Source: Wolbachia endosymbiont of Drosophila innubila (GTDB taxonomy: Bacteria; Pseudomonadota; Alphaproteobacteria; Rickettsiales; Anaplasmataceae). From it: a stretch of DNA of 32,000 bases. The DNA is taken from the NCBI RefSeq assembly GCF_021378375.1, contig NZ_CP076228.1:840001-872000 (forward strand), written 5' to 3'. The notes under the pieces were generated by a model. That model had not been told where the DNA came from and searched no databases. It was given only the letters and a program-made list of their open reading frames with translations. This document shows, piece by piece, positions 2,165 through 28,804 of the stretch. How positions within the stretch are numbered: position 1 is the stretch's first letter; each line of letters starts with the position of its first letter. Made by a program: the position numbers and the translations under genes.

Positions 2165-2247
2165 TAATTATCCGTAAATTGGTATTTACTATATCTTAAT
2201 AATTATAGCGTAATCAATGCAGCATAGTAATTAATTTTGGAGTGAAT

Positions 2248-3594: not shown

Positions 3595-3620
3595 TAAAAT
3601 GCATGATATAGCTAGTGCAG

Positions 3621-3748
3621 CCCTACGTCATACCGCTGCAGACCGTCATACCGCGATTCATTCGCGGTATCTCTAGATCCCGCTAGCACGTAGCGGGATG
3701 ACGATTGTCAGGGTAGCACCTCCCTCCCCTGTCATCCAAGTAGCTGAC
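3621..3748. repeat. cluster of short palindromic (REP-like) hairpin modules
   Basis: Hairpins ACCGCGATTCATTCGCGGT and CCCGCTAGCACGTAGCGGG, each followed by GATGAC-type tails. The same modules recur at 6162-6525 and 12650-12719. Confidence 0.7.
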
Positions 3749-3834
3749 TGACCTTACCCAGAAAAAGTGGAGAGAAAGTTTGGAATGTTTTTCACAAAGA
3801 GAATGATGAATCAAAATGCTCAGGAATGCAATAG

Positions 3835-4698
3835 TTAATAGTGACGTTGTTTGTTATAAAAAATTTCTATGTATTCAAATATTGCAGTTCTAGTTTGTTG
3901 AGCAGAGTGTTGTGAAGTATCAATAAGTATTTCTCTTTTCAATGAGCTAAAGAAGCTTTCCACAACAGAATTGTCGTAACAACAACCTTTATGACTCATC
4001 TATGTTTTTATGGATAAGAGATATTGATAACCTTGCGAAGTATATTGTGAACCTTGATCACTATGTAATAGTAGATTTTGGCAGGTTTACGCTTGTTAAC
4101 GGCCATTAATAAAGAGTCCATAACCAATTGTTTATTTATTGAACTGCTCATTAACTACCATGCGTGAATATAGATCGATTATTGTTGCCAAATATAGCCA
4201 TCCTTCTTTGGTTTTTATATAAGTAATCCCATACTTTATTTGGTTGATCAACAATAAAGTTTTGATCTAGTATATTGGGAGCTACAGCTCTATTATCTGT
4301 TTGTTGTTTTTTAATTTTAAACTTTCTTTTCAGTATAGCCCTGATGTCATTTTTCTGCATAATACTTTGCACCGTTTTCAAATTGCAACTTTTACCCAAA
4401 GCCTTCAATTCAGCATGAATTTTAGGAGCTCCATATCTACATTTAGAAACTTGATATATTTTTGAATAGCTGCGAGTAGCTCTTTATTTGCTGATTCTCT
4501 ACTGCTTATTTTTCTTGTGGTCCACTTATAGTAGCCACTAGCAGAAAATCCTACATAATTCCTGTACTTTATAGCAGTTACTATATAAAAAATATTTTAC
4601 TCTTTTTGACTGGCTAGGGCTTTTTTAAATGTCTCTTTCCCTTGTTACTCTTGCTTTGTAAATCAAACCTCTCTTTGTCGTAAGGAGCCATGTTACCT
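3835..4698 (-). pseudogene. IS3-family transposase OrfB, multiple frameshifts and stops
   Basis: Minus-strand translation across three frames gives HSDQGSQYTS, CCYDNSVVESFFSSLKRE and IFEYIEIFYNKQRHY, the conserved IS3 DDE-region motifs, interrupted by several stops. Confidence 0.75.
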
Positions 4699-4881
4699 CT
4701 ACCTGGAAATGCATCTGCTGCCGACTTTTTTTCGTTGTGTTTCTTTTATCCATTTTCCTAATAAACCACCCTTTATTCCTAAATCCTTTGCTATTTTTGT
4801 AATTGTTTGACCTGCCTTTCTTTGTTCATTTGCCAGTTTAACAGCTTCCAATTTGAATTCTGCCGTATATTCTCTTGCCAT
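4699..4881 (-). CDS. IS3-family transposase OrfA (HTH) remnant
   Basis: 60-aa ORF MAREYTAEFKLEAVKL..., the typical IS3/IS911 OrfA N-terminus. It ends near an A7 run where the OrfAB frameshift normally occurs. Confidence 0.6.
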   Translation of the reverse strand: MAREYTAEFKLEAVKLANEQRKAGQTITKIAKDLGIKGGLLGKWIKETQRKKVGSRCISR

Positions 4882-4954
4882 TTCTAATCCTCCAAAATTT
4901 TATTTTACCCAAAAAAACTCTTTTCTTTCTCTCCACTTTTTCTGGGTAAGGTCA

Positions 4955-5665
4955 GTCTGTCCAGGTTCCAAGATCGGTGTCAAAAATTGCTCAAACCATC
5001 CATTAAAAACATCCATATTACAGTGGCCTTCAAAGGTTAACGGAACAACTATCTTTCTTCCACTTAAGGCTGCAACCATACTGATTCGTTGAGTTTTCTT
5101 TCCAGATTTTAAGGCATAAAACCGCTGTCCTTTCTGGCAATATCCGTAGTTCGGTGTTATCAATGCCAGACTCATCTATATACACTAAGTTTTTAGGTTC
5201 TTTTGTCGCTATAATTTTCAAAAATTCAGCACGTTTTTCTTCGTTTCTTTCCTTGTATCCATATGTCTTTTTTTGCGCGTAAATCCAATTTTTTTAAGGG
5301 CTCGATAGATCGTTTGGATACTAACGTTGTTCCAAAGTTTAGCCATTTCCGATAGAGTCTTTCCTCCGTGTTCTCTGGCAAATTTGGCAAAGGTATCCCA
5401 GTCGGTAATTTTGTGATTGTAACCCCCATTTCCAAGTTTTTTTGATTGAAAGTCTCCTGTTTCTTTTCTTCTTTGCTGCCACTCCCATAAAGTAGTTCGT
5501 CCAATCTTAAATCTTGCTGCCACTGTTTCTCTGCTTTCTCCTTCGTCTAGCGCTTCCATTGCTTTTTTTCTTAAATCATAACTATATGCTGCTGGCATTC
5601 AACCTCCTTATCATCATCTACCCTTATCCTATCACATCCGGACTTTTATGGAAAGAGCTATATTT
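4955..5665 (-). mobile_element. IS630-family element, 3'-truncated by the IS3 insertion or deletion
   Basis: HTH-containing N-terminal ORF (5598-5218), then frameshifted pieces with VYIDESG and GRKIVVPLTFEGHCN...LEPGQT. The ORF stops being IS630-like exactly at the IS3 terminus (4957/4958). The outer boundary near 5665 is approximate. Confidence 0.65.
4958..5598 (-). pseudogene. IS630-family transposase, frameshifted and truncated
   Basis: Three overlapping ORF pieces in different frames (5218-5598, 5030-5221, 4900-5175). The C-terminal part of the DDE domain is missing. Confidence 0.7.
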
Positions 5666-5684
5666 TTATCAATTCTGCAATCAT

Positions 5685-6068
5685 TTATCTTAATATTAAG
5701 TTTCTTTTGATGCTTGTGAATAGCTGCAAATCTCTTCCTATTTGTTGCAAATACCCTTTTATAAACCCGACTGTTTGTCTTAAACCAATTCTAAAGAAAC
5801 TGACGATTATATGCACCAAAATCACAACTTTATCACTATAAATATAGTTGCCGCCCTGCATTTTTGGACAATTCTCGTACCAATTTTCTATGGCGTCATT
5901 GATATAACAAAAAATGCTTCCTCTTTCTTGGAGAAATTTGTTATATTCATGGCAGTTACTGACTCTCATTTTTTGTGGCATATTTTTTCTTCAACAGTTA
6001 AATGGCTATTTATAATGAATTTTGTCAGTAACTGCCAGTTCTTTTCACTTGAGCGATGCAACAAAGCC
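5685..6068 (-). mobile_element. IS5-family (IS903-group-like) 5' fragment
   Basis: Terminal repeat GGCTTTGTTGCATCGCTC (reverse complement of 6051-6068) resembles the IS903 IR GGCTTTGTTGAAT. The 98-aa ORF MPQKMRVSNCHEYNKFLQERGS... is a typical IS5/IS903 transposase N-terminus. The rest of the element is absent. Confidence 0.65.
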
Positions 6069-6161
6069 CACTGGGATCCAGGAAAGTTTGCTTGTAAGCA
6101 AGCAAACTAGCATGGAAAGTTTATACTAAATGAATGTTTTTGATGAGGTTGCACAGAAGCT

Positions 6162-6525
6162 GGATCCCAGTGTCAAGCACTGGGATGACATCATCCTTTT
6201 TTGGATTCCAAACTGGAATGACAGCAGTCCTACGTCATACCGCCGCGGTATTTCCAGATCCCGCTAACACGTAGCGGGATGATGGTTGTCAGGGTGTTGT
6301 CCAAGTAGCCTCCTTCTTCTGTTATCCAAGTAGCCTCTTTCTTGTCATCCCAGTGCCCAGACACTGGGATCCAGGAAACTTAACTTTACACCAGGTAATA
6401 AGAACTGGATTCCAGCGTCACGCGCTGGAATGACAGCAGTCCTACGTCATACCGCGATTCATTCGCGGTATCTCAGCCGCTAACAAGAGATCCCGCTAAC
6501 AAGCAGCGGGATGACGGTTGTCGTT
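6162..6525. repeat. cluster of palindromic (REP-like) hairpin modules
   Basis: At least six hairpins (CCCAGTG..CACTGGG twice, CCAGCG..CGCTGG, ACCGCG..CGCGGT, CCCGCTA..TAGCGGG twice), mostly followed by GGATGAC or GAATGAC. Confidence 0.7.
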
Positions 6526-6995
6526 TAGCCATAAATATTAAGAAATTTACCAAATGAAAAAAAGGCAAAAGAAGCCCCGTGGTTATTATCCGCTTTAAAA
6601 TATTGGCGTTTTTTATGTTTTAAACGCTTGACAAGCGAGATTCAGCCACTTTTAATTGCAACTAACCTACGCTGCAAATGTTTAAGAAATTTACTAAGCA
6701 GAAAAAAAGACAAAGAATCCCCGAGTTAGCTAGTCTTTTACTATCTCTGTCGAGTATTGGCATTTTTTGATGTCTTGTAACGCTTTATAAGCGCGTTCAG
6801 CTTATTTAGATAAAAATCTAGATGTAGATGAAGTTTTGTAAAGACATACAGTATCTATATACTGCAAAAAATTGAACATGAGACGCCGATACATTAAGTA
6901 ATCCTTACCTTTTAATCTGCAGATTGGCGAAAGCAAATACAATAGCTTCACTATCATGATAAGGGCGCTGGCGGAGTTTGTCAAGGGATTTTTGA
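6441..6995 (-). repeat. promoter-led repeat, copy 1 (left inverted arm)
   Basis: About 555 bp, reverse-complementary to 12169-12719 at roughly 96-97 percent identity by eye. The 170 bp after the promoter is nearly identical. Confidence 0.85.
6956..6984 (-). promoter_or_regulatory. sigma70-like promoter at the head of repeat copy 1
   Basis: On the minus strand: TTGACA (6984-6979), 17-nt spacer, TATCAT (6961-6956). Confidence 0.45.
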
Positions 6996-7017
6996 CGAAA
7001 TGATTTTGAAAGCAAAG

Positions 7018-7270: not shown

Positions 7271-7891
7271 ATGGGAATATTTTTATATAAAGACGACTTG
7301 CCAGCTAGTTCAATACCAGATGATATAAGGTCTATAGCTGTTGATACCGAGGCAATGGGGCTACTTCATAGCAGAGATAGATTATGCCTTGTGCAGCTCT
7401 CTTTTAATGATGGCAACGCTCACTTAGTTCAACTCAAGAACGATTATACAGCGCCAAATTTAAGAAAAATATTAGAGGATAAAAATATAACTAAAATATT
7501 TCACTTCGCGCGATTTGATGTGAGCATAATACGTTATTACTTGGAAACTTGGGCACTTCCGTGCTATTGCACAAAGATAGCTTCACGTTTAGTTCGCACT
7601 TACACAGATAATCATAGCTTAAAAGAGTTGTGCTTAGAGCTGCTTGATACCAAACTAAATAAGCAGCAGCAATCTTCTGATTGGGGAAATGAAAATTTAA
7701 CAGACAAACAAAAAAGTTATGCTGCATCTGATGTTTTGTATCTCCACAGTATAAAGGAAAAGCTAGACTTAATGCTGGAGCGTGAAAATAGAAAAGAATT
7801 GGCCCAAAAGTGCTTTGAATTTCTTCCTACTCGTATTGAATTAGACTTAATGGGTTGGGAAAACGTGGATATCTTTAACCACCAGATGTAA
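7271..7891 (+). CDS. rnd: RNase D-like 3'-5' exonuclease (DEDD domain only)
   Basis: 206-aa ORF with DTEAMGL (Exo I), FHFARFD (Exo II-like) and YAASDVLYL (Exo III). It is too short to carry HRDC domains. Confidence 0.7.
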   Translation: MGIFLYKDDLPASSIPDDIRSIAVDTEAMGLLHSRDRLCLVQLSFNDGNAHLVQLKNDYTAPNLRKILEDKNITKIFHFARFDVSIIRYYLETWALPCYCTKIASRLVRTYTDNHSLKELCLELLDTKLNKQQQSSDWGNENLTDKQKSYAASDVLYLHSIKEKLDLMLERENRKELAQKCFEFLPTRIELDLMGWENVDIFNHQM

Positions 7892-7956
7892 TAGAAGTTT
7901 TTTGTTTGTGCAAAACACTTTAGGGCAATTTTTCAAGCTCTGCGGTAAGAATTTAG

Positions 7957-7986
7957 TTGATTAACTGCTAATAGATACGCTATATT
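7957..7986 (+). promoter_or_regulatory. possible promoter for trxA
   Basis: TTGATT (7957-7962), 18-nt spacer, TATATT (7981-7986), about 30 nt before the trxA ATG. Confidence 0.3.
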
Positions 7987-8018
7987 TTACAAGCAATCGT
8001 TTTAAGTTTAGGTATTTT

Positions 8019-8342
8019 ATGAGTGATGATATTACACCGGTAAATGATCAAAATTTCAAATCTGAAGTCACTGACTATAAAGGGTTTGTTCTGGTAGATT
8101 TTTGGGCAGAATGGTGTGGGCCATGTAAAAGTCTAATGCCGCGTATTGAACAGTTGGCTAAAGACAGAAAAGGCAAGATTAAGATCTGCAAGTTCGACAT
8201 AGATGAAGGGACTGAAGTGCCAAGTAAGTATGGGGTTCAATCTATACCTACTTTGATTATATTTCAAGATGGTAAGGAAATTGCACGCAAAATTGGTGCA
8301 ACAAATGATCTGCTAAGTTGGGTTGATAGTGAAATAAGCTAA
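8019..8342 (+). CDS. trxA: thioredoxin
   Basis: 107-aa ORF with the WCGPC active site in the canonical position. Confidence 0.92.
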   Translation: MSDDITPVNDQNFKSEVTDYKGFVLVDFWAEWCGPCKSLMPRIEQLAKDRKGKIKICKFDIDEGTEVPSKYGVQSIPTLIIFQDGKEIARKIGATNDLLSWVDSEIS

Positions 8343-8384
8343 TAGACAAATTTGCTTTTGTGTGTATTATAAATATTGATAAAA

Positions 8385-8461
8385 GGGATTGTAGCTCAGT
8401 CGGTTAGAGCAGTTCGCTCATAACGAATTGGCCGTAGGTTCGAGTCCTACCAATCCCACCA
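8385..8461 (+). tRNA. tRNA with CAT anticodon (elongator Met or lysidine-modified Ile2)
   Basis: GGGATTGTAGCTCAGTCGGTTAGAGCAGTTCGCTCATAACGAATTGGCCGTAGGTTCGAGTCCTACCAATCCCACCA. It has a cloverleaf with a G1-C72 pair and no three-GC anticodon stem, so it is not an initiator. A 3' CCA is present in the DNA. Confidence 0.85.
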
Positions 8462-8519
8462 TTGTTAGCATGATCGTAACAATGAGAAAACTATAGTATA
8501 TGAACTATATATTAATGTA

Positions 8520-9188
8520 ATGGGGGAAATGATGGAATTTACTAAGTCTCTAAATAACAAGTTAGATGAATTGCACTTACTAAATCATCCATTCTACCAA
8601 TCATGGAATACAGGAAGCTTAAGCTTGCAAGCTTTACAAACCTATGCTAAAAAATATTATCACCATGTTGCTGCGTTTCCTCGTTACATCAGTGGTATAC
8701 ATTTTCTGTGCCCAGATCTAAAAATGCGACAGGTTTTACTTGGTAATTTAATAGAAGAGGAACAAGGTGATGAAAATCATCCAGAGTTATGGAAACGTTT
8801 TGCTGAAGGGCTTGGCGTTGCGCGATCTGATCTTCGTGAAAGTGCACAGATTAAGGAGACACAAGAATTAATTGATGGTTACTTTGACATTGTAAGATCA
8901 GGTTTTGCAGCAGGTCTTGGAGCCTTGTACGCTTACGAACGTCAAACTCCAGAGGTTTCCAAGTCTAAAATTGAAGGTTTAAAAAAACACTATTCAATAA
9001 GTGATGAGCGTTCTCTTCAATTTTTTACGGTCCATATGCATGCTGATGAATGGCATTCTGAGGAATGTGCAAATCTTATTGAAGATCTAGATGAAAAAGA
9101 GCAAGATAAAGTTATGCAGGGTGCTCAAAAGGGAGCAAGGCTCTTGTGGGGTTTTCTTGATGGAATGATGAATGCTAGCGTGTGTTAG
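8520..9188 (+). CDS. CADD/PqqC-like di-iron oxygenase (CT610-type candidate p-aminobenzoate synthase)
   Basis: 222-aa ORF. HPFYQSWNTGSL, YAKKYYHHVAAFPRY, NLIEEE..HPELW and LYAYE match the Chlamydia CADD (CT610)/PqqC-TenA-like pattern as I remember it. It sits directly upstream of the fol genes. Confidence 0.7.
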   Translation: MGEMMEFTKSLNNKLDELHLLNHPFYQSWNTGSLSLQALQTYAKKYYHHVAAFPRYISGIHFLCPDLKMRQVLLGNLIEEEQGDENHPELWKRFAEGLGVARSDLRESAQIKETQELIDGYFDIVRSGFAAGLGALYAYERQTPEVSKSKIEGLKKHYSISDERSLQFFTVHMHADEWHSEECANLIEDLDEKEQDKVMQGAQKGARLLWGFLDGMMNASVC

Positions 9189-9227
9189 TAGTTGTAAGTA
9201 GCTCAAACTCAGTGATGTTGGAATGCA

Positions 9228-9614
9228 ATGTCTGCATGTAATCTTCTTATATCTGACTTACGGCTTTGGGTTCATTTAGGCTATAGTGCAGAAGAGAAGT
9301 ATCATTCTCAATTAGTTAGTGTTAATATTGATTTTACCTTTAAATCCCCCCCTTTAGGACTTACAACTGACCGGCTTGAGGATACTATATGCTACTTGGA
9401 GGTAGTTCAGAGTATTCAATCTCTCGTTCAAAGCAAGCAATTCAACTTAATCGAGCATTTAACTCATGATATATACAGGACCATTAATAACCTTGTGATG
9501 CAAAAAAAGCTTATTATTTCTTCTATAGGCGTAACTATTCACAAAGTTGCACCACCTGTCCCCAGTGTGCATGGAGGTGTTTTCTTTACTTATCGTAATG
9601 CGTTGCAAGAATGA
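9228..9614 (+). CDS. folB: dihydroneopterin aldolase family protein (FolB/FolX)
   Basis: 128-aa ORF of FolB size with a LGxxxEE-like start (HLGYSAEEK). Its stop overlaps the folK-folP start (ATGA at 9611-9614). Confidence 0.7.
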   Translation: MSACNLLISDLRLWVHLGYSAEEKYHSQLVSVNIDFTFKSPPLGLTTDRLEDTICYLEVVQSIQSLVQSKQFNLIEHLTHDIYRTINNLVMQKKLIISSIGVTIHKVAPPVPSVHGGVFFTYRNALQE

Positions 9615-10891
9615 TTTACATTTCTGTTGGCTCAAATATAGGAAATCGCTTTTCCCATTTACAAAAGGCTGCTCAGTTACTGCAGGAGCGCTATTTTAAA
9701 AATTTAAAATCTTCAATTATTCTGGAAACTAAGGCTATTTTACCAAATGATGCTTCACCTGGGTGGGACAGGCCATTTCTAAATATGGTTGTGTATGGAA
9801 GTTGTTCTTCTTCTCCTGAAGAGCTGTTAAAGGGCCTTAAACAAATTGAATGTGACATTGGCCGTCTGCAGGTCTATGAAAAATGGGCACCTCGCGTTAT
9901 TGATTTGGATATTTTGTTATGGGATGACCTGACACTTGATACACCCTACCTTAAGATTCCTCACCCAGAATTGATAAACAGACCATTTTTGCTTCACTTG
10001 ATGACAATGCTGAACCCTATGGCAGTAGTTAACAAAACGTTTGGTACTGTTAACCCTAACATTAAGGATTGCTTTTTAAGGAGTTTTACGCTTTCACCAG
10101 AGCTTGTAGGTATTGTCAATATTACTCCTGATTCATTTTCAGATGGTGGTCTTTATTATGATGCAGATCAAGCAACCAAGCAGGCACTGCGGCTGTTATC
10201 AGATGGTGCAAGCATAGTTGAACTTGGTGCTCAATCAACAAGACCTGGCTCCTCAATACAAACTCCAAAAGCAGAATATGCACGCTTAAAACCAGTGCTT
10301 GATAATCTCAATCAGTATATGAAAGTTGGTGACATTAAAGTCAGCATTGATAGTTTCTGGCCAGATGTTATTTTGAATGTTTTGGAGCACTACAACATTG
10401 CCTGGGTAAACGATCAGAAGGGAGATCTAGATGATAATACCTTAAAAGCGATTGCTAGCAGTGGATGTAGTATCGTTATTATGCATTCACTCTCCATACC
10501 ACCACATAGTGACAACATTATCCCAAGTGACATTGATCCAATTGATACCATAAATAATTGGGCAGAAAGGAACATTAATAGATTACTAGCTCTAGGTTTT
10601 GATCAAAGCTCGATCATTATTGATCCTGGTATTGGTTTTGGCAAATCTATGTACCAGAATATCCAGATTTTACGCAGTATAGAAACGTTACAAAATTTTG
10701 GCTGCAAAGTTCTGGTTGGCCATTCTAGAAAGTCATTTATTTCTTCTTTTTCTACAGAACCTGTCTTTAACCGAGATTTAGAAACAATTGCTACATCATC
10801 TGTATTACACAACAAGGTTGATTTCCTTCGAGTGCATAATGTGCGTGATCACATGCGATTTTTTGTAGCTCAAGCTGCTTTACAGGGATGA
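9611..10891 (+). CDS. folKP: bifunctional HPPK / dihydropteroate synthase (FolK-FolP fusion)
   Basis: 426-aa ORF. The N-terminal HPPK part has RVIDLDILLW and PHPEL. The C-terminal DHPS part has GIVNITPDSFSDGG, DIGAQSTRPG-like ELGAQSTRPG, IDPGIGFGK and GHSRKSF. Confidence 0.88.
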   Translation: MIYISVGSNIGNRFSHLQKAAQLLQERYFKNLKSSIILETKAILPNDASPGWDRPFLNMVVYGSCSSSPEELLKGLKQIECDIGRLQVYEKWAPRVIDLDILLWDDLTLDTPYLKIPHPELINRPFLLHLMTMLNPMAVVNKTFGTVNPNIKDCFLRSFTLSPELVGIVNITPDSFSDGGLYYDADQATKQALRLLSDGASIVELGAQSTRPGSSIQTPKAEYARLKPVLDNLNQYMKVGDIKVSIDSFWPDVILNVLEHYNIAWVNDQKGDLDDNTLKAIASSGCSIVIMHSLSIPPHSDNIIPSDIDPIDTINNWAERNINRLLALGFDQSSIIIDPGIGFGKSMYQNIQILRSIETLQNFGCKVLVGHSRKSFISSFSTEPVFNRDLETIATSSVLHNKVDFLRVHNVRDHMRFFVAQAALQG

Positions 10892-16497: not shown

Positions 16498-18223
16498 ACC
16501 AAATTCAAATGAAGTAGTTTTTGGTATAGATCTTGGCACTACCAACTCTTTAATTGCTATGGTAAATAAAGCTGGCAACGTGGAGATATTTAAAGATGAA
16601 CAGGGAAGAGAGCTATTACCTTCTATCATTTCATGTGAAAATAATACATTGAAAACTGGCTATGATGTTGGCTCAAATGCAATCCACTCAATAAAACGTT
16701 TAATGGGTAAAAGTGTTAAAGATTTGAACAAGATGGGTGTTTATTTTGAAATAGATAACGAAAGTGAAAAAGTTATTAGAGTAAAATATTCGGAGGAAAA
16801 GTATCTTACTCCTGTTGAGATTTCTGCTGAGATATTAAAAGCTTTATGTGAGAGGGTAAAAAAGTCTAAGGGGCTGGAAGTAAAAAAAGCAGTAATTACT
16901 GTGCCAGCTTACTTTGACGATTCAGCACGTAACGCAACTAAATATGCAGCAAAATTAGCTGGCATAGAAGTTCTTCGCCTCGTTAACGAGCCAACCGCTG
17001 CAGCGCTTTCTTACTCCATTGAAAAGAACAATAACAGTGGAATATATGCAGTTTATGACCTTGGTGGTGGAACATTTGATATTTCGATATTGAAATTGCA
17101 TCAAGGAGTGTTTCAAGTTCTTGCAGTTGGTGGTGATACCAAACTCGGCGGTGATGATTTTGATCATTTGCTGAGTTCAATTGTGATTGATAAGTATAGA
17201 GAAAAGACGGCTAAGCAACTAAATTCCTTACTTATCGAATCACACTCTGTGAAAGAGTACCTAAGCAATCACACTATAGGTATCTTCGAATTTAATGTTA
17301 ACGGCAAGCCATTTGAGTGCGAAATTACCAGAGAAGAATTCGAGCAGGCAATCAGTTCTTTGGTCAATAAGACTATCAATATAGTCACTCGTACTATAAG
17401 TGATATAGATCTTAAAATTGATGATATAAAAGGAGTAATTTTAGTTGGTGGTGCAACTAGAACACCATTGGTTCAAAATTCACTAGTCAAACTCTTTGGA
17501 AATAAAGTACTAAATGACGTGGATCCAGATAAAGCAGTTGCCATTGGGGCAGCTCTGCAGGCTCATGATTTAACTTCGAGCTCAAAAGATAGGAATATTC
17601 TCCTGGATGTTTTACCTCTATCACTTGGCATAGAAACTATGGGAGGCATAGTTGAAAAAATCATACCAAGAAATACGCCACTGCCAGTTTCAGAAACAAA
17701 AGAGTTTACAACTTATATTGATGGGCAAACAGCAATGAAAATTCATGTTTGTCAGGGAGAGCGTGAAATGATAGAGGATAACAAATCTCTAGCGCAGTTT
17801 GAACTAAAAGGTATACCGCCACTGCCTGCAGGTTCTGCAAGAGTTGAAATAGAATTTACAGTTAACGTTGACGGAATCTTGACTGTTACTGCAAGAGAAA
17901 AAACTACTGGAATTGAGCAGACAGTTAAAGTAAATTCAAGTTTTGGCTTGAGTGAAGCTGATGTTCAAAATATGGTTAACCAGTCAATAAACAGTTTTGA
18001 CGAAGATATGAAGGCTCGTTCCCTTGCAGGTGCTAAAATTAATGGAAATAAACTCATACACTTGGTTGAAAACAATAATAACCTTTCCACTGATCAAAAG
18101 TTGAAAAACCTATTACAAAATGCAAAAAACGCTTTACAAGGCAATGACTTGAATGAAATTAACAACACTATCGCCGAGTTAGAAAATTCTTCTTTAGAGT
18201 TGTGTGAATTAACAAATAGGTAG
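16475..18223 (+). CDS. hscA: Fe-S protein assembly chaperone HscA (Hsp70 family)
   Basis: 582-aa ORF with Hsp70 signatures GIDLGTTNS, VYDLGGGTFDIS and VILVGGATRTP. Its start overlaps the hscB end. Confidence 0.92.
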   Translation: MQPIQISEPNSNEVVFGIDLGTTNSLIAMVNKAGNVEIFKDEQGRELLPSIISCENNTLKTGYDVGSNAIHSIKRLMGKSVKDLNKMGVYFEIDNESEKVIRVKYSEEKYLTPVEISAEILKALCERVKKSKGLEVKKAVITVPAYFDDSARNATKYAAKLAGIEVLRLVNEPTAAALSYSIEKNNNSGIYAVYDLGGGTFDISILKLHQGVFQVLAVGGDTKLGGDDFDHLLSSIVIDKYREKTAKQLNSLLIESHSVKEYLSNHTIGIFEFNVNGKPFECEITREEFEQAISSLVNKTINIVTRTISDIDLKIDDIKGVILVGGATRTPLVQNSLVKLFGNKVLNDVDPDKAVAIGAALQAHDLTSSSKDRNILLDVLPLSLGIETMGGIVEKIIPRNTPLPVSETKEFTTYIDGQTAMKIHVCQGEREMIEDNKSLAQFELKGIPPLPAGSARVEIEFTVNVDGILTVTAREKTTGIEQTVKVNSSFGLSEADVQNMVNQSINSFDEDMKARSLAGAKINGNKLIHLVENNNNLSTDQKLKNLLQNAKNALQGNDLNEINNTIAELENSSLELCELTNR

Positions 18224-18230
18224 AAAAAGC

Positions 18231-18986
18231 TTACACAACCTTGTGCAATACCCTATTTAATCTCAAAGCAACAGGTAACCTGAAATTAAATGGTAACCAA
18301 TCGACCTTTCCTAATTTAAATGATAAACCAACTATGCTTACACGCCCAATGATATTTTCCATTGGTACAAAACCAACTTCAGGAAACCTACTATCTAAAG
18401 AATTATTTCTATTGTCTCCCATAACGAAAAATTGATCGTTAGGTACATAATAAACCGGAGTGTTATATGATAGCTTATTAGAAATGTCATCTACCAAAAT
18501 CTCATGTTCCTTGCCACTTAAAAGCGTTTCTATATATCTTGGTATGTTACGATTTGACTCATAATCAAAAAAACTTTCAATTTGCCTTCGCTCTACTTTC
18601 TGATCATTTAGGTATAATTCTCCCTCTATCATTTGCACTTTGTCACCTGGTGTTCCTATTACTCGCTTAACAAACCTGATGCTGTCATTTCTTGTGGGTT
18701 TGAAAACTACTATGTCGCCACGCTTTGGAGGGGTATAAAAAATCCTGCCGCTAAAAATGTTTGGAGAAAATGGAAAGGAGTGTTTACTGTAACCGTATGA
18801 ATATTTACTAGTAAAAATGTAATCCCCTTCAAGTAGGGTGCTTTTCATTGAACCAGAAGGTATATGAAATGGCTCGAATAAAAAACTACGTATTGATAGC
18901 GCAATCAACAGTAAAAAAAACAATGAAGATAAAAATCTTCCCGTTCTTATCACCCAGTTTTTGCTTAGTTCTTCCAACTTTTCCAA
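18231..18986 (-). CDS. lepB: signal peptidase I
   Basis: 251-aa ORF with an N-terminal TM helix, SGSMKSTL (catalytic Ser), RGDIVVF, VKRVIG (catalytic Lys) and GDNRNNSLDSR boxes. Confidence 0.88.
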   Translation of the reverse strand: MEKLEELSKNWVIRTGRFLSSLFFLLLIALSIRSFLFEPFHIPSGSMKSTLLEGDYIFTSKYSYGYSKHSFPFSPNIFSGRIFYTPPKRGDIVVFKPTRNDSIRFVKRVIGTPGDKVQMIEGELYLNDQKVERRQIESFFDYESNRNIPRYIETLLSGKEHEILVDDISNKLSYNTPVYYVPNDQFFVMGDNRNNSLDSRFPEVGFVPMENIIGRVSIVGLSFKLGKVDWLPFNFRLPVALRLNRVLHKVV

Positions 18987-19118
18987 CTTTGTTTTGCTTA
19001 TAGATTAAGCTTATTATAATACATAAATTAAAAAATGGTAATATGAAATTTTACTTGTGAATGTTATTCCTCTATTCAAAACAATTTTGAAAAGGCGGTT
19101 CATTTCTTTCAACGGTGT

Positions 19119-19255
19119 CATCCAAGTAGCGTGACACATAACTGTACGAACATTGCAATTTGCAGGTGGCAGATGAAAGTAGCTGATGCACATCTGTACG
19201 AACATTTGCTTTTGTTAAGGTAATATGGTGTTATGAAAGTAGCTGACACTGGAAT
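19119..19255. repeat. imperfect direct repeats (about 38 nt, 2.5 copies)
   Basis: Units at 19119-19156 and 19172-19209, plus a truncated unit from 19232, share AAGTAGCnTGAynCACAT..CTGTACGAACATTnGC. The AAGTAGC core also occurs at 3737, 6303 and 6328. Confidence 0.5.
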
Positions 19256-19580
19256 GGCTTTGTTGCATCGCTACTTATGAAAGGCTAACTATAGTTAGGA
19301 TTATAAGCAACCTATTGAAAATCTTGTTTTTTGCAATCAATCTGATCAAATTTAAGAATAGTAATTTGTTATTTATATTAATAAATTTAATTCTATTGAA
19401 AATAGCTAAAGCATTGAAATTCTTGAATTTTAGCCGGATTGGTAAATGGTAGTGAAATTTCTTTTACTCAAATTTAGGTATTCATTGACCGTTCTTGTTA
19501 TAAATACCAGAATAATAAGCTACTGATATTCCCTATCTTTTTTATCTTTAATCCATCATAGCTAGCGATGCAACAAAGCC
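19256..19580. mobile_element. 325-bp MITE with IS903-like terminal inverted repeats
   Basis: Perfect 18-bp IRs GGCTTTGTTGCATCGCTA (19256-19273; reverse complement at 19563-19580). They are flanked by a perfect 9-bp direct repeat CACTGGAAT (19247-19255 and 19581-19589). There is no coding capacity. Confidence 0.8.
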
Positions 19581-22416: not shown

Positions 22417-23079
22417 TTGTATCCGTTCAGCGGAGTGGTAGAATAAGGTAGACAAAGCAAGATAATAAAGATAATCATAGAGCAAAAGTGAGGTAATGTG
22501 GTAAACCTTTGAGAACTTTGCAAAAATTTACAGCAAAAAATAGAAAAACTGAAAGCAGAGATAGAAAACTTAAAAGCAGAAAATAAAGCTTTAAAGATAG
22601 AGAACGCTGAATTAAAGGAAAGGCTCGGTTTAAATTCAAAAAACTCATCCCTGCCCAGCTCAAAAGAGCTATACAAAATAAAAAAGGACAAGCCAAAAAG
22701 CGAAAGGAATGTTGGCGATCAGGTTGGGCATAAAGGAAATTTTCATGCCACAATGGAAGCGGATAAAGTAGTAAAAATAGAGTTGCCTAATATTTGCGAA
22801 TGCGGAGGAGAGCTTGTAATATGCGAAAAACCTTATGTTCACCAAAAAGTTGATCTTCCGGAAATTAGGCCTTATGTAGTAATTGGAACATGGTCGTTGT
22901 TGGAGATGCAGAAAAAGAAAAAGTAGCAAGTTACCAGAAGGTGTTACGCCAGATACATTTGGTCCAAGGGTTAAGTCTATAATTGCAGCACTCAGCGAAT
23001 TTTACAAAAACTCAAAGCGTGAAGTGGCTAGTATCATAAATGACATTTTTAATTTGAACATAAGTGTTGGCAGCATATC
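22417..23079 (+). pseudogene. IS66-family element, 5' part (IR plus transposase N-terminus), frameshifted and interrupted
   Basis: IR TTGTATCCGTTCAGCGGAGTGGTAGAAT at 22417. The plus-frame translation (not in the ORF track for lack of a long Met-initiated ORF) gives a leucine-zipper segment, LNSKNSSLPSS, GDQVGHKG and CECGG. After a frameshift near 22885 it gives CWRCRK..LPEGVTPDTFGPRVKS, the IS66 pattern. It is cut at 23079/23080 by an IS5-family element. Confidence 0.65.
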
Positions 23080-23995
23080 AGAGGTTGTCCGGAAACTAGT
23101 AAATTCAAGCATATTCCCTCTTTAACATAACCCTACTCATAGCTAGGTATATGAAATTCTCAGTGGATGTTGTGAGTAAATCATACTCCTTCGATAGCCT
23201 TCTATTCCTATTAACCCAAGCAAAAGTCCTTTCTACAACCCATCTTCTTGGCTGTACTTTAAACCCTTGTTCTCTTGTTGGTAGTAGCTCAGGTGGCGTA
23301 TCTTTGTGCACCCAAAATCTACATGGAGGCCTTTTAACAATTTCAATATCTATGTCATATTCTTCCTTTATGTGATTCTTTAAATTTCTTCCTTGGTATC
23401 CCATGTCAGCCCACATTTTTTAACTTTAGTATATTTTGTTCTCATATTGTTTAATGCTATTTTAATACCATCTCTATCATTTTCGTTAGCAGCGCCTACG
23501 TAACAACCTAGTATAAAACCCTGAGTGTCTGTAATTATATGCCTTTTTCTACCCTTTTTACTTTTTACTTCCATCATAGCTTTGATCCCCCTTTTCTGTA
23601 GTCTTTACAGATTGACTATCTACTATACAGGCACTCGGCTGCTCATTCTTTCCTATTTTTCTTCTACTATATTTTGTAATTTCATAATTCATTTTCTCAA
23701 AAATTCCCTGCTTCTTCCATTGCCTGAACTGCTCATACACAGTCTTCCATAGCGGAAAATCATTTGGTAAATACCGCCATTGACACCCTGTACGCAATAC
23801 ATAGAAAATTGCTTCTAATATTTCTTTTTTGCTATACTTTGGCAGCCTTCCTCCTTTCTTGTATGATACTCTGAAGTGTTTTTCTATTCTTGCCCATTCC
23901 CTTTCGCTTAGATCTGTTGGATACTTTTTTCTCATCTTTACCCCGTACTAAAATTTCAGATATTATAGCCTTTTACTTGTTTCCGGACAACCTCT
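23080..23995 (-). mobile_element. IS5-family (IS1031-group, ISWpi1-like) insertion sequence, 916 bp, transposase frameshifted
   Basis: 17-bp perfect IRs AGAGGTTGTCCGGAAAC (23080-23096; reverse complement at 23979-23995). The transposase is split into three ORFs (23935-23558, 23577-23380, 23416-23105) carrying typical IS5 motifs (YVLRTGCQWRYLP, GRKRHIITD, WVVERTFAW). Confidence 0.85.
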
Positions 23996-24329
23996 AAGTG
24001 GTGAAGACTATCAGGATCTACAAGATTTTTGTGATACGCTCACTGTAAGTAAAGTTCGTTATATTAATGAGCAGATAGCAAAAGGAAAGAACAAAACTTC
24101 TTTTGTTAAAAAACTAGCTGATATTGCAAAAGACGATCAATTAGCTCAGGAACTGCGCAATAAGCCACTGTCTAAATTTAAAGAAGAAGTTGGTGGATTG
24201 AAACAGGGACTGCATCGAAGTAATAAGGCAACTGCGATACCGACCAATTATCAATACAGCGATGTTCCGAGTGACTTCGAAGCAGAATTTAAACAAGTAC
24301 AAGATTATTTCAGAACTAGGGGATATTGA
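23996..24329 (+). pseudogene. 5'-truncated phage gene (candidate scaffolding-protein C-terminus)
   Basis: An open frame runs from the IS boundary to TGA 24327-24329 (110 aa, helical and charged). Its stop overlaps the start of the coat-like gene (ATATTGATG). The scaffold call is by position only. Confidence 0.35.
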
Positions 24330-25768
24330 TGACTATTAAGACAAGTGCAACATATTACAGAACAACATTATTGTCGCAAAGGCTGATTGAAACTGTTTTG
24401 TTTTCAAGTCCACTCTTAGCTTATACTGGCCCTGGTGCTAATGATATTCCAAATCGCTATTCTGGACAGGATCATTTTTTAGTCCAGCCTCCTTTTATTC
24501 CTACAGCAGGAGGGTTAATCGATGATTTGGAATTTCTTACACATCATGATGACTTAAAAATTCACAAAGTTAAGCAAAAAACTATGAGAATTGACTATAA
24601 GAGAGTTTCTGGCTTGGCTGAAATTTTTGTCGATGACGTCAAATTTTTATTTAACCGCGATCAGTTCCCTAGCAATGTACCAACCAGTTTAACATCATTC
24701 ATGGAGCGCGGTGAGCGCGTTTATCAGGAATTATTAATGCAGGTGATTAGGTCAATAAATGATTATCAATTTAAGACGATAGCATCACGTGGGTTTATCT
24801 GCGCTGGCTCTACTGAAGATAGTATGTATGACTGCATAGAAGGAGAGGTACGTACACTTATCGATTATATGATTCGTGTTAATGGTGGTGTACTTAGAAC
24901 TTCAAGACTTGTAGGTTCAATGCCAAACTCTGCAATTGGAGTTTTGCGTACGAAATCAGGATTAAATTACACGCAAGCGCCGAAAAGCGATATGTTTCTT
25001 AGCGACACTAAAAACATGCTATCACCACTGACATTTGATTGTGCTGATATTTATATCGATACGTCAACTTATTTTCATAAGGCAGGTCCGGCATCTAAAG
25101 ACAAGTTAACAATAAAAGAAATTGTTAAAGAGATGGATGAATATTGTTCTATGACTGTGACTTTTGGTTTTTCTGGGTCAGTAGACATAGAGGTAGATAA
25201 TCGTTTCAATCCTGTCTTTAAAAAAGGAGATATCATTCAACTAGAGGGCAAAGAGTGGCTAGCACGAGATAGGGATGAAATACCATCAGGAGTGCCAATA
25301 GCATTCACTGTAATGAAGGATAGCACGAATGCTACTGTACAGGTGTCACCAGGTATCACCTATGGTGTTGATGTTCCGGAGAAAGAGTATTTAATAGGCG
25401 CTAAAGGAAAAGTTGTCGGAAATCACTGTAAAGCATTCTTCTGGTGGCAACCGGCTTCAATATTTAAGATTGGACCAGTGCCTGCACCTTCAACTAACAA
25501 ATATCTTTACAAGGAAATATCTGCTCCAAATGCTGCTTTTGGACCGACAAAAAATAATGCAATGTCGTTTTTGGTAGACAGCCAATATGTACTCATGAAT
25601 ACCCCATATGAATATGGTGAACTAATGGCTTACATGTATTCAGATTTCTTTCCGTTTTTTGTTGGAACTTTGATATTACCACCGAAATCACCAAAACCAG
25701 AAACTTATATTAAGACGATCAAAAATCTTTCTACTGCTGATAAGAAAGACGATAAAAAAGATGAGTGA
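24329..25768 (+). CDS. P22-type coat (major capsid) protein-like
   Basis: Uninterrupted ORF of 479-480 aa. Four collinear patches resemble P22 gp5 as I recall it (YF..KAG; VDNRF + K[KR]GD; F[TS]V..V.[VI][ST]P; FW...P[VI]PA). See findings. Confidence 0.5.
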   Translation: MTIKTSATYYRTTLLSQRLIETVLFSSPLLAYTGPGANDIPNRYSGQDHFLVQPPFIPTAGGLIDDLEFLTHHDDLKIHKVKQKTMRIDYKRVSGLAEIFVDDVKFLFNRDQFPSNVPTSLTSFMERGERVYQELLMQVIRSINDYQFKTIASRGFICAGSTEDSMYDCIEGEVRTLIDYMIRVNGGVLRTSRLVGSMPNSAIGVLRTKSGLNYTQAPKSDMFLSDTKNMLSPLTFDCADIYIDTSTYFHKAGPASKDKLTIKEIVKEMDEYCSMTVTFGFSGSVDIEVDNRFNPVFKKGDIIQLEGKEWLARDRDEIPSGVPIAFTVMKDSTNATVQVSPGITYGVDVPEKEYLIGAKGKVVGNHCKAFFWWQPASIFKIGPVPAPSTNKYLYKEISAPNAAFGPTKNNAMSFLVDSQYVLMNTPYEYGELMAYMYSDFFPFFVGTLILPPKSPKPETYIKTIKNLSTADKKDDKKDE

Positions 25769-25998
25769 GATAAAGACTTATGATGATAATTTCTCCAATT
25801 TACTTGTGGAAATACAAGGAATGCTTGGGATTAACTCGCGCCGTGATGCTTCTGAGCATCATGGTACGCTCGATTTGGTAAAGAGGCTTTTTTGGGAAGC
25901 TTTTGATCAGTTGCATGAAAATTACTATTGGCTGGGCTCTGATGTTATCCGGGAGTTTGAATTAGAGCCCGGTCAAACAGTTGGTGGTGGCTATTTGT
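25761..25998 (+). CDS. hypothetical phage-associated protein, exon 1 (gene split by group II intron)
   Basis: Its ATG overlaps the coat-like gene stop (ATGAGTGA). The ORF runs into the intron 5' end GTGCG at 25999. Confidence 0.6.
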
Positions 25999-26489
25999 GT
26001 GCGCCAAGAAGTGCGTAAGGAACAGTTGGTGAAAATCCAACACGGGTAAAGCTTAGCCGGCAACCTGGAACAAACCATTATGCTGCGTAAGGTAACGAGC
26101 GTAGTAAAGCTAATGGAATGGACAACATAGGGTGCAACGAAAGTGAAGGTATTGAGTCCCGTAATTCACGCGTCATGGGGGCTGACACTTTACATTTGGT
26201 GGAAGGCAACATGGGTAATAACGCTAAGGCAAGATATTACTCACCTCATCGGGATCGAAGGCCGCGTCATGTGTTGAGATGGACCTTACGTGAACTTGGG
26301 AGATCCTTTGTATTCCTGTAAGGGTACTCTGGAACAAGTCAATAAAGGCGAGGACTGGAGGAAGATGCAAAGGAAGTCGGACTAATTGATAGTACTCGAG
26401 TGTGGGAAAGCCACATACAAGGGAAGCGGTTAGCAATATAGTGACTGGTATAGGGATTGCTATACCAATACAACAGAGATTAGAGGAGT

Positions 26490-27804
26490 ATGCAAGGAAA
26501 ACTAAACCAGATAGCAGTAAGGGCTAAGCAAGATAAGCGAGTAAAATTTACATCATTAGTTCATTTGATTAATGAAGAGAATCTTGCAGAGTGTTATAAG
26601 GAACTAAAACGCAACAAGGCTTGTAGTATAGATCGTGTGACAGTGGAAGCTTATGGAGAAAATCTAGAAGAGAAACTTAAAACACTAGTGGATAGTATGA
26701 AGAGAAAACAATATCAACCGCTACCAGTGAAAAGGGTATACATACCCAAAGCCGGGAGCAAAGAGAAGCGCGGTCTCGGAATACCATCAACGGAAGATAA
26801 GTTGGTACAGGTAATGCTAAAGAAGATATTAGAAAATATTTATGAAGCAAACTTTATGGACAGCTCGTATGGATTTCGACCAGGAAGAAATTGTCATCAG
26901 GCGATAAACGCTCTAGATAAAGCAGTTATGCACAAACCAATTAACTATATTGTAGAAGTGGATATCAAGAAGTTCTTTGATAATGTTCAACATAAATGGC
27001 TAATGAATTGTCTAAGGGAACGAATAGCTGACCCAAATTTATTGTGGTTAATAAAACGATTTCTAAAGGCAGGAATAGTCGAAGTTGGATGTTATAAAGC
27101 AACCGATCAAGGCACACCACAAGGTGGTATAGTAAGCCCTGTATTAGCTAATATATACTTACACTATGTGCTGGACTTATGGTTTGAAAAGAAATTTAAG
27201 CCAAAAGCCAGAGGATATTTACAGCTAATAAGGTTTTGCGACGATTTTGTAGTTGGCTGCGAGAGGGAAGAAGACGCAAAAGAATTTCTAGAATTACTGA
27301 AACAAAGACTAAGTAAATTTGGGTTGGAAATAGCTGAAAATAAAACAAAAAATAGTAAAGTTTGGTAAGAAAGAATGGTATCAAGCAGAAAGAGAGAAAC
27401 GTAGGACGGCTAGCTTCAACTTTCTAGGATTTACACATTATTGTGGAAAAAGTCGTAATGGTAAACTTATGATGAAGCAGAAAACTTCAAAAATAAGCCT
27501 AGCCAGAAAGATTAAAGAAATCAAAGAATGGTTGAAGATGGTACGAAGTCGTATCTGTTTCAAAGATTGGTGGCAGAAACTTAAAGCCAAACTAACAGGA
27601 CACTATAGCTACTTCGGAGTTAGCGGAAATTATCGGTGTTTGATTCAATTCTATCGACCGGTAACAAAGTTAGCATTTAAGTGGATAAACCGACGTAGTC
27701 AAAAGAAAAGTATGGATTGGGAACAATTTATACACTATTTAAAAGTAAATCCATTACCAAAACCAAAGGTATATGTTTCTTTATACACAGGAGCACTAGT
27801 GTGA
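26490..27804 (+). pseudogene. group II intron-encoded reverse transcriptase/maturase, frameshifted, no endonuclease domain
   Basis: RT blocks are present (RGLGIPSTEDKLVQ, GFRPGRNCHQA, QGTPQGGIVSPVLANIYL, a FCDD variant of YADD in LIRFCDDFVVG), then FLGFTHY and the X/maturase region. The frame breaks in the A6 run at 27347-27352. Pieces are 26490-27368 and 27334-27804. Confidence 0.85.
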
Positions 27805-27817
27805 ACGCTGTATTGTG

Positions 27818-27850
27818 GAGCCGTGTGCGGGAAATCCGCAAGCACGGTTC
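27818..27850 (+). ncRNA. group II intron domain V
   Basis: GAGCCGTGTGCGGGAAATCCGCAAGCACGGTTC has the AGC catalytic triad, a GAAA-type apical loop and a 2-nt bulge on the 3' strand. Confidence 0.8.
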
Positions 27851-27914
27851 TTTTGGGGAGACTATGGTTATGAGACCAAATCGCTGGTTTCAAGGTCATG
27901 AGTCTCTACCAGAC

Positions 27915-28804
27915 TAGACAGGTTAAAAAACAAGAAAAACAATAAAGAAATTCTTAAGGCTTGGTATGACGTTCAAAATGGTTATGAAGACGATGAAAGT
28001 CAAAAAATAGTTGATGATTTTATTTCAGAAGTAAGTATTCCTTTAATGAGAAAATTATTGAGTATTACTTCTCAATATAGTGAACAAATTGTGCTGACGT
28101 TAATGAAAAATATTAGCTCTATAAAGTTAAATAAATTACAATGTTGTGAGCTGGTTCAGCACATGAGAAATAAACTGCAGGAGCATGATTTAGATGACCA
28201 AGAAAGTTTACTCGAAAACATCGGAAAAAAAGTATTCTTAGAGCTATTAAATCGAGATCTACTCGAGACAGATTTTTCTCTCAAGGATTCATCTTTGGAT
28301 GGAGCTAAGAGAATAGCTAATAAGATAATAGAAGAAGAAGTAGCAGAATTTAAATTAAAGGCTGAGAAGACTATTGAAGGTCAGATAATTAGCATGTTAG
28401 ATGGGTTAAGAATGCTCCCAAGAGAAAAAAGATGTTATAGGGTATATGTAGAACTCAGTAAAAATAACGAAAATGATAAGGAAAAAATAAAGAAAATTTT
28501 GCAAGAAAGGTTAAAAGTAACAAAAGCAGCAATGGATGAAATGTTAAAAAAAGGAGCTTCACATAAGCTAGAGTTAGAAATTGAAAGTGTATATGAAGGA
28601 AATAAAGATCACGTTACTCAACTTTATGAAAAAATAAGAGAAACAAAAAAGGAATTCATTGAAGATGGTCTTTTAACACCTCAAGAAGTAGAGAATATAA
28701 CAAAAGCAAAAATCATAGACTTAAACAAAGAGGACAAAATCATACCGTCAAGCAATTTGTCTCGTAGTTTAAGTGTCAATAATTTGGCAGTACATTATCT
28801 ATAA
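27915..28804 (+). CDS. hypothetical phage-associated protein, exon 2 (helical, K/E-rich)
   Basis: The frame is open from 27902. Joining 25998 to 27915 gives a continuous 375-aa ORF. The track's Met-initiated ORF 28046-28804 is its C-terminal part. Confidence 0.55.

Follow-up and report, generated by a model that had tools for sequence, protein, structure and literature searches.

What is an intact open reading frame (ORF) of phage type doing alone between two damaged neighbours in a Wolbachia chromosome? The question arises in a stretch of 32,000 nucleotides (hereafter, the window) from the Wolbachia endosymbiont of Drosophila innubila (NZ_CP076228.1, positions 840,001–872,000). There, the initial annotation had recognized an orphan coat (major capsid) gene resembling gene 5 of phage P22, and had left two explanations standing: the last decaying piece of an unknown phage, or a domesticated capsid gene. 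Our analysis points to a different origin. The gene is an orthologue of the gene for the "putative phage coat protein" of the Wolbachia plasmid pWALBA1, and positions 23994–25998 of the window are probably a 2-kb remnant of a pWALBA1-like plasmid integrated in the chromosome. The protein itself is probably a P22-type coat.

We begin with the origin of the gene. In PLSDB, the sole plasmid match was pWALBA1 of wAlbA (18,803 bp), with 74.2% amino acid identity, 100% coverage and an E value of 0 by tblastn; the orthologous product is WP_259245609.1, encoded at 8290–9684 of NZ_CP101658.1. The correspondence continues on both sides of the gene. A fragment of HP3 lies directly upstream (93% amino acid identity) and a fragment of HP4 directly downstream (95%), in the same order as on the plasmid. 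pWALBA1 was described by Martinez et al. (2022, PLoS Genet; PMC9560607) as a circular element of 18.8 kb encoding ParA, ParG, RelBE, a DnaB-like helicase, a P22-like portal, TerL and a "phage stabilisation protein"; in its S3 Table, the "putative phage coat protein" sits between HP3 and HP4, and a weak match of the coat gene to P22_CoatProtein (HHpred probability 64.7) was already reported. The same paper describes pWALBA1-like chromosomal islands that are "flanked by transposable elements", with genes "truncated by transposase sequences" and "varying degrees of degradation", and lists wBor (GCA_014129615.1) as positive for a plasmid-like region (PMC9560607). In a wBor contig (L005), we found this remnant at the same chromosomal site as in the window. 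A further homologue (P0004), in wCfeF, lies within a reported plasmid-like region (PMC10438800).

The remnant is recent. Compared with two intact plasmid-like contigs (L006 and L009), it has 5 mismatches in 2009 bp (99.75% identity); two of the five lie within the coat ORF, both are synonymous, and the protein is 100% identical. The same 479-aa protein is found in three states of the locus. In L006 and L009 the element is intact, with DnaB, ParE, HP2, HP3, coat, HP4, a 502-aa protein and more. In L007 and L008 it is cut only by an insertion sequence (IS), at the same IS junction, and the downstream genes are intact. In the window, wBor L005, L010 and L011 it is cut both by the IS and by a group II intron. 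Given this near-identity to intact copies, an intact ORF is the null expectation of recent decay.

The ORF is uninterrupted, as had been claimed: it is open on the forward strand from 24326 (TTG) or 24329 (ATG) to 25768, giving 480 or 479 aa. The ATG at 24329 is the likely start; a Shine-Dalgarno-like AGGGGA lies 5′ of the ORF, and the ATG overlaps the stop codon of the preceding gene (ATGA). Its product matches a hypothetical protein of Wolbachia pipientis at 100% identity and has nine Wolbachia homologues. Between four divergent copies, the pairwise ratio of nonsynonymous to synonymous substitution rates (dN/dS) is 0.08–0.27, a measure of purifying selection between plasmid lineages and not on the orphan copy. 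The gene is a genuine coding sequence whose protein is under selection within its family. In related elements, and not in the window, it is linked to portal and TerL genes.

A scan of GTDB genomes gave matches in Wolbachia alone. Outside Wolbachia, 1.8 billion representatives searched exhaustively with HMMER yielded only two relatives, P0011 (489 aa) and P0012 (542 aa; locus L001, 237–1865), both metagenomic and with 22–24% identity, and the family alignment is shallow after two word-index searches and this exhaustive one. The 3.5-kb contig carrying P0012 has no recognisable neighbours. The two proteins may be markers of a wider, unsampled lineage of the capsid-like family. One member of the P0001 cluster (P0136, 628 aa) is annotated as coming from the spider Trichonephila clavipes. 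The scaffold is 1.8 Mb long, and the protein reflects either Wolbachia or plasmid DNA within the host assembly, or a lateral transfer.

Next, we asked whether the protein is a coat of the P22 type. The initial annotation had aligned four patches of the ORF with strings of the P22 coat protein, gp5. Against P22 gene 5 in NC_002371, from which the P22 gene order was also taken, the four strings are exact, and the patches are collinear (P22 positions 167, 252, 295 and 352 against positions 245, 289, 326 and 370 of the window protein). The "VDNRF" identity falls in a segment that varies and has gaps among the Wolbachia relatives (block 271–300, 40% identity), and this patch is probably due to chance.

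A targeted comparison was made between profiles. Testing this one family was justified because the P22-like portal in the neighbourhood names the expected coat family in advance. The query comprised the Wolbachia family with P0011 and P0012, and the hhalign target comprised 16 diverse P22-like coats, down to 23% identity to gp5. The score was 40.2 (P 2.5e-4), aligning query positions 272–389 with P22 253–370. In 97 column-shuffled controls the mean score was 15.6 (standard deviation 2.6, maximum 23.4), and the reversed profile scored 19.2. The matched region corresponds to most of the I-domain and the strand that follows it. At a lower maximum accuracy (MAC) threshold, a collinear path ran from 13 to 439 of the query and from 9 to 397 of P22, and the N-arm match within this extended path was also found by BLASTP. 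Against phrog_283, the E values were 0.098 for the window protein, 0.018 for the pWALBA1 copy and 0.0014 for P0011. Either phrog_283 or PF11651 was the best or sole head-protein match for three members that are 24–74% identical to one another. Family identities were checked: phrog_283 corresponds to P22 gp5, phrog_578 to gp10 and phrog_156 to the P22 portal. The Wolbachia proteins are 464–480 aa long, compared with 417–432 aa for P22-like coats. Matches to SH3/Crk (E ~0.3), obtained in PDB sequence searches with both the protein and the family profile, were dismissed as chance.

The company that the gene keeps in related elements is that of a head gene. The portal of pWALBA1 matches PF16510 (E 2.6e-32) and phrog_156 (E 2.5e-22), its TerL matches phrog_38 (E 3e-42), and the plasmid carries no other capsid candidate. 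L002, from the Wolbachia of Dolichovespula media, has the homologue in a run of genes of one orientation, the last of which encodes a P22-like portal (PF16510, E 5.5e-29; phrog_156, E 2e-20); a ParE toxin and a DnaB-like helicase are encoded upstream. The gene order HP3, coat, HP4, 502-aa protein mirrors the P22 order gp8-gp5-(orf69)-gp4-gp10, with HP3 at the position of the scaffolding gene and HP4 at that of gp4. The best connector match of the 502-aa protein is weak (phrog_578, the P22 gp10 family; E 0.13). Aligning the neighbouring genes with single P22 proteins by hhalign yielded no useful signal, the portal itself reaching a probability of just 5%.

Structure prediction with AlphaFold2 gives a hint for the I-domain only. 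Residues ~256–365, the sole part of the two models with a predicted local distance difference test score (pLDDT) of 50–73, are modelled as a beta-barrel. When the second, low-confidence model was compared with the PDB by Foldseek, the I-domain of the CUS-3 coat (6mnt) ranked first (E 6e-4, template modelling (TM) score 0.46) and was the sole match at E<=1e-3; with the first model, it ranked second (E 7e-3). CUS-3, a P22-like phage, and P22 itself were also represented among the Foldseek matches by capsid chains. Long helices are suggested by the low-confidence models at residues 7–27 and 122–155. Residues 241–300 (window 25049–25228), at the start of the I-domain-like region, are hypervariable and indel-rich in the Wolbachia family, with 40–60% identity compared with 80–90% on either side, which fits the expectation for a surface-exposed loop.

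A number of results weigh against a coat of the P22 type, and many of them would suit a plasmid protein of some other function (surface, adhesion or partition-related) that happens to contain a small, I-domain-like beta-barrel. All sequence matches lie below curated thresholds. BLASTP against gp5 gave an E value of 0.42, not significant on its own. In the Pfam scan that the initial annotation had proposed, the P22 coat family PF11651 stayed below its cutoff of 24 bits: the window protein scored 10.9 bits (E 0.2) and the pWALBA1 copy 14.7 bits (E 0.013), in matches spanning ~50 residues; library-wide searches returned no significant match for the coat candidate. The supported part of the profile alignment is ~120 residues long, the I-domain and next strand, and its hhalign probability is 43%. 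The mean pLDDT of the two AlphaFold2 models is 34.2 and 35.2, with no HK97 core, and barrels of the F1-ATPase crown (N-terminal domain) match the predicted barrel about as well as 6mnt does. The metagenomic relatives offer no informative neighbours, and the "phage stabilisation protein" label of the 502-aa neighbour was not reproduced with Pfam. Relatives of the coat candidate were found neither in IMG/VR nor among 50,697 GenBank phage records (tblastn, E<=0.1), and no particles of pWALBA1-type elements have been reported.

Several features speak against such a non-capsid protein. The targeted profile–profile score lies ~9 standard deviations above the shuffled controls, and the best path keeps its collinearity from the N-arm almost to the C-terminal end. 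With close P22 relatives alone as the target, the probability was 7%, and narrow hidden Markov models gave P 0.001–0.1; the rise from 7% to 43% with a more diverse target means that the signal grows with diversity, as true homology should. The size fits, and the gene stands between those at the scaffold and gp4/gp10 positions, on elements with a P22-like portal, a TerL and nothing else that could be a capsid. We therefore consider a non-capsid function unlikely. The initial identification as a P22-type coat is probably right, on the strength of the hhalign score, the I-domain match and the gene order, and the HK97 core is presumed. As to capsid function, the protein keeps the status of a candidate. 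The related claim that the gene belongs to a lineage other than the lambda-like one of phage WO most likely holds as well: there is no match to a WO capsid, and the portal of related elements is P22-like.

The sequence of events that best explains the locus is as follows. A pWALBA1-like plasmid, a candidate phage-plasmid, would have integrated between housekeeping genes, and would then have been worn away, at one end by an IS5-family element and at the other by a group II intron with an associated rearrangement. The surviving ORF would encode the major capsid candidate, a very divergent P22-type coat with an HK97-fold core and an inserted beta-barrel I-domain. From what is known of the family, we infer that the coat of the intact element would assemble with the protein encoded by the small gene at the scaffold position upstream and with the P22-like portal, that the gp10-like head-completion protein would close the shell, and that TerL would package plasmid DNA; Martinez et al. 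also raised the possibility of shell assembly and packaging for the intact element (PMC9560607). In the window, the partners and the upstream operon are lost, and the coat gene would at most be expressed fortuitously. The orphan, presumably without function there, would be a leftover that has not yet degraded and has no role of its own, intact through recent decay and not through domestication.

Domestication would mean that the protein was retained by the host as a shell or compartment, as a part resembling a gene transfer agent, or as a means of interfering with incoming pWALBA1-type elements. The intact ORF between two truncated neighbours, the recurrence of the remnant in two or more assemblies, those of the window and of wBor, and the low dN/dS of the family are all in its favour. 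However, a protein that is 100% identical, and DNA that is 99.75% identical, to the copies in intact elements leave too little time for the orphan to show selection of its own, so that recent decay alone leaves an intact ORF, and the dN/dS reflects the plasmid lineages. In addition, the native upstream operon is replaced by the IS, and promoter-like sites are no more frequent than chance (12 found, 12.9 expected). Other strains carry truncated copies of the coat gene (P0008, P0009 and P0010), and the published islands are themselves degraded to varying degrees (PMC9560607). The near-identity could also have arisen by gene conversion with a co-resident plasmid instead of by recent integration, which counts against a recent date. 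All in all, we regard domestication, the second of the two original proposals, as very unlikely. In its most specific form, the orphan coat would be expressed from the IS-proximal region and co-opted, making empty shells or compartments or acting as a dominant-negative blocker of superinfecting pWALBA1-type elements; were this slim chance real, the intactness of the gene beside two truncated neighbours would be no accident.

The first original proposal, the last fragment of an integrated prophage lineage unrelated to described Wolbachia elements, fares no better. No deposited phage genome or IMG/VR contig is similar to the gene, which would suit such a lineage, as would the layout of L002. At 17172–19401 of that contig, a large serine recombinase (551 aa) comes directly after the plasmid-like block, and a 190-aa AAA_25 fragment (phrog_13004, E 1e-74) after the recombinase, suggesting that the block adjoins a prophage-type region. 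However, the element is a described one, represented by the circular 18.8-kb pWALBA1 and its relatives with ParA/ParG, RelBE and the DnaB-like helicase, and the window fragment matches pWALBA1 gene for gene, with 74% amino acid identity over the full length of the coat. An unknown prophage as the source is therefore scarcely credible. The novelty of the gene goes with it in spirit: the initial annotation would have given it up had the gene lain in a described WO head module, and the gene lies in a described mobile element, though not in WO. Literature on P22-like phage in Wolbachia held nothing relevant before the plasmid papers. The 2022 paper already contained the coat gene with its tentative annotation, the plasmid, coat recombination and the chromosomal islands that mobile elements degrade; what the present analysis adds is a stronger, controlled homology test, the structural hint for the I-domain and the three-stage decay series.

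The anatomy of the locus is consistent with the preferred reading of a plasmid remnant worn down from both sides. Plasmid-type DNA in the window is confined to ~2 kb, with pWALBA1 homology bounded by 23993 and 26001. An IS66-family transposase gene remnant (22544–23079, reverse strand; blastn, 72% identity to 4647–5203 of L002, an IS66 transposase of PF03050) forms the outermost part of the scar that mobile elements have left on the upstream side. It is followed by a 916-bp IS of the IS5 family (23080–23995, reverse strand), which has 24-nt terminal inverted repeats at 23080–23103 and 23972–23995 (96% complementary) and transposase ORFs carrying PF13340 (DUF4096, IS4/5 family; E 2.8e-27). Plasmid homology sets in at 23993/23994, at the edge of this IS. 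The IS has removed the 5′ end of the HP3 homologue, as the initial annotation had it: of the 179 aa of pWALBA1 HP3 (7751–8290), the 3′ 111 codons remain at 23994–24326 on the forward strand (tblastn, aa 69–179, 92.8% identity, E 8e-69).

On the other side, the HP4 homologue retains its 5′ ~78 codons at 25761–25998 on the forward strand (tblastn with pWALBA1 9674–10378, aa 2–78 of 234 at 25767–25997, 94.8% identity) and ends at the boundary of a group II intron; the 85-aa ORF listed for this fragment runs into the intron and stops at 26018. The intron occupies 25999–27916 on the forward strand, with 5′ end GTGCG at 25999 and 3′ end at ~27916, Rfam matches RF02005 (26032–26264, 132 bits) and RF00029 (27816–27914, 51 bits), and reverse-transcriptase ORFs at 26490–27368 and 27469–27804. 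The plasmid remnant ends here on its downstream side, and the intron also marks the breakpoint of a rearrangement. The downstream neighbour had been described as split by the intron. This is rejected: no C-terminal part of HP4 was found by tblastn in the window or in wBor L005, no second exon follows the intron, and the window and wBor diverge directly behind it, so the gene is truncated at the 5′ end of an intron that marks a rearrangement.

Searching the window by tblastn with all pWALBA1 proteins revealed no portal or terminase, in agreement with the earlier statement that portal, terminase and tail genes are missing from it. The plasmid core genes for ParA, ParG, HP1 and RelBE were likewise not found, and the DnaB-like helicase gave only a weak cross-match to RadA; the surviving remnant is a fragment of the plasmid variable region only. 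Housekeeping genes lie on either side of the island, as expected from the non-prophage context originally described. Up to 22081, Pfam families identify folate synthesis genes, radA, ftsY, the isc/hsc cluster, lepB, pyrB and an iron-type solute-binding protein; from 28795 on, there are two membrane-protein genes, which by sequence alone we interpret as plsY and an amino-acid symporter.

Comparison of individual copies of the locus gave several further observations. At 1–338 of L007, an IS5-family element sits at the same HP3 junction in the orientation opposite to that in the window, which could reflect either an insertion that occurred independently at a hotspot or an inversion mediated by the IS. 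Between 23080 and 27916, the window and wBor differ by single-base length changes only, mostly in homopolymers (23415, 23558, 23586, 26397, 26420 and 27347), with no substitutions and with the coat ORF spared. As a result, the intron reverse transcriptase is split into 292 and 111 aa in the window and is a single protein of 437 aa in wBor, and the IS transposase is also split; these split ORFs may stem from faulty assembly of one genome or the other. As far as the 3′ end of the intron (27916/27917), wBor L005 runs collinearly with the window; the sequences that follow are unrelated. In the window, a 252-aa ORF and plsY come next, and in wBor a 491-aa gene and ccmE, a pattern that points to a chromosomal rearrangement at this intron copy.

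The 252-aa ORF (28046–28804, forward strand), in a stretch of 31% GC right after the intron, has a weak PHROG match to an excisionase (E 0.007); it matched no Pfam family, no plasmid and nothing in wBor L005. Elsewhere in the window, a 450-aa ORF without a Pfam match (2242–3594, forward strand) is followed by ~3.4 kb almost without long ORFs (3600–7000), in which an IS630-type helix-turn-helix fragment lies at 5218–5598. The area from 2242 to 7000 may be another decayed or mobile region.

Set beside known systems, the remnant is closest to pWALBA1 and its chromosomal islands, including the "Dozen island" (PMC9560607). It shares with them the orthologous coat, the HP3/HP4 order, boundaries made of transposable elements and truncated genes, and the wBor locus is identical to it. 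Unlike the islands in the text of that paper, it is only ~2 kb long with one intact gene, and one of its boundaries is a group II intron and not a transposase. Its coat allele is 74% identical to that of pWALBA1, whereas its flanks are 93–96% identical. A similar mosaic was observed between L006 and L004 (pWALBA1), with 74.5% amino acid identity for the coat, 75% for HP2 and 79% for HP6, against 96% for HP4, 94% for the 502-aa protein and 97% for DnaB. Such uneven divergence implies module exchange; recombination of the coat gene had been noted earlier (PMC9560607).

With the P22 gp5 family (PF11651 and phrog_283; P22, CUS-3 and Sf6-type podoviruses), the protein has in common a similar length, weak collinear similarity that spans the N-arm through the C-terminal strands and is best supported in the I-domain and next strand (P22 253–370), the gene order and a P22-like portal. 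It differs in falling below every curated cutoff, in being 40–60 residues longer and in its lysine/aspartate-rich C-terminal tail; the host element is a ~19-kb plasmid with ParA/RelBE and no recognised tail, tailspike or lysis genes, and not a ~40-kb temperate phage. The phage WO head module (a lambda/HK97-type portal B, protease, decoration D and capsid E) likewise places phage structural genes in Wolbachia chromosomes, where they decay through IS elements. However, the coat candidate has no sequence relationship to it (tblastn, 50,697 phage records), its portal family is P22-like and in the window it lies outside any WO region. Phage-plasmids (P1, N15 and SSU5 types) and capsid-encoding satellites combine plasmid maintenance with packaging and head genes in the same way, and an intact pWALBA1-type element could, like them, move by transduction. 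Unlike them, pWALBA1-type elements have no recognised tail or lysis functions and no reported particles, and the copy in the window is a non-autonomous fragment.

Taken alone, the orphan gene matters little, as a further decaying piece of a mobile element that was described in 2022. The three-stage decay series to which it belongs could help to order and date such events and integrations, and the assignment of the coat is modestly strengthened relative to the HHpred probability of 65% in the literature. If pWALBA1-type plasmids do build P22-like capsids, they would provide Wolbachia with a second route of horizontal DNA transfer, distinct from phage WO, and the capsid question for these plasmids matters for engineering Wolbachia.

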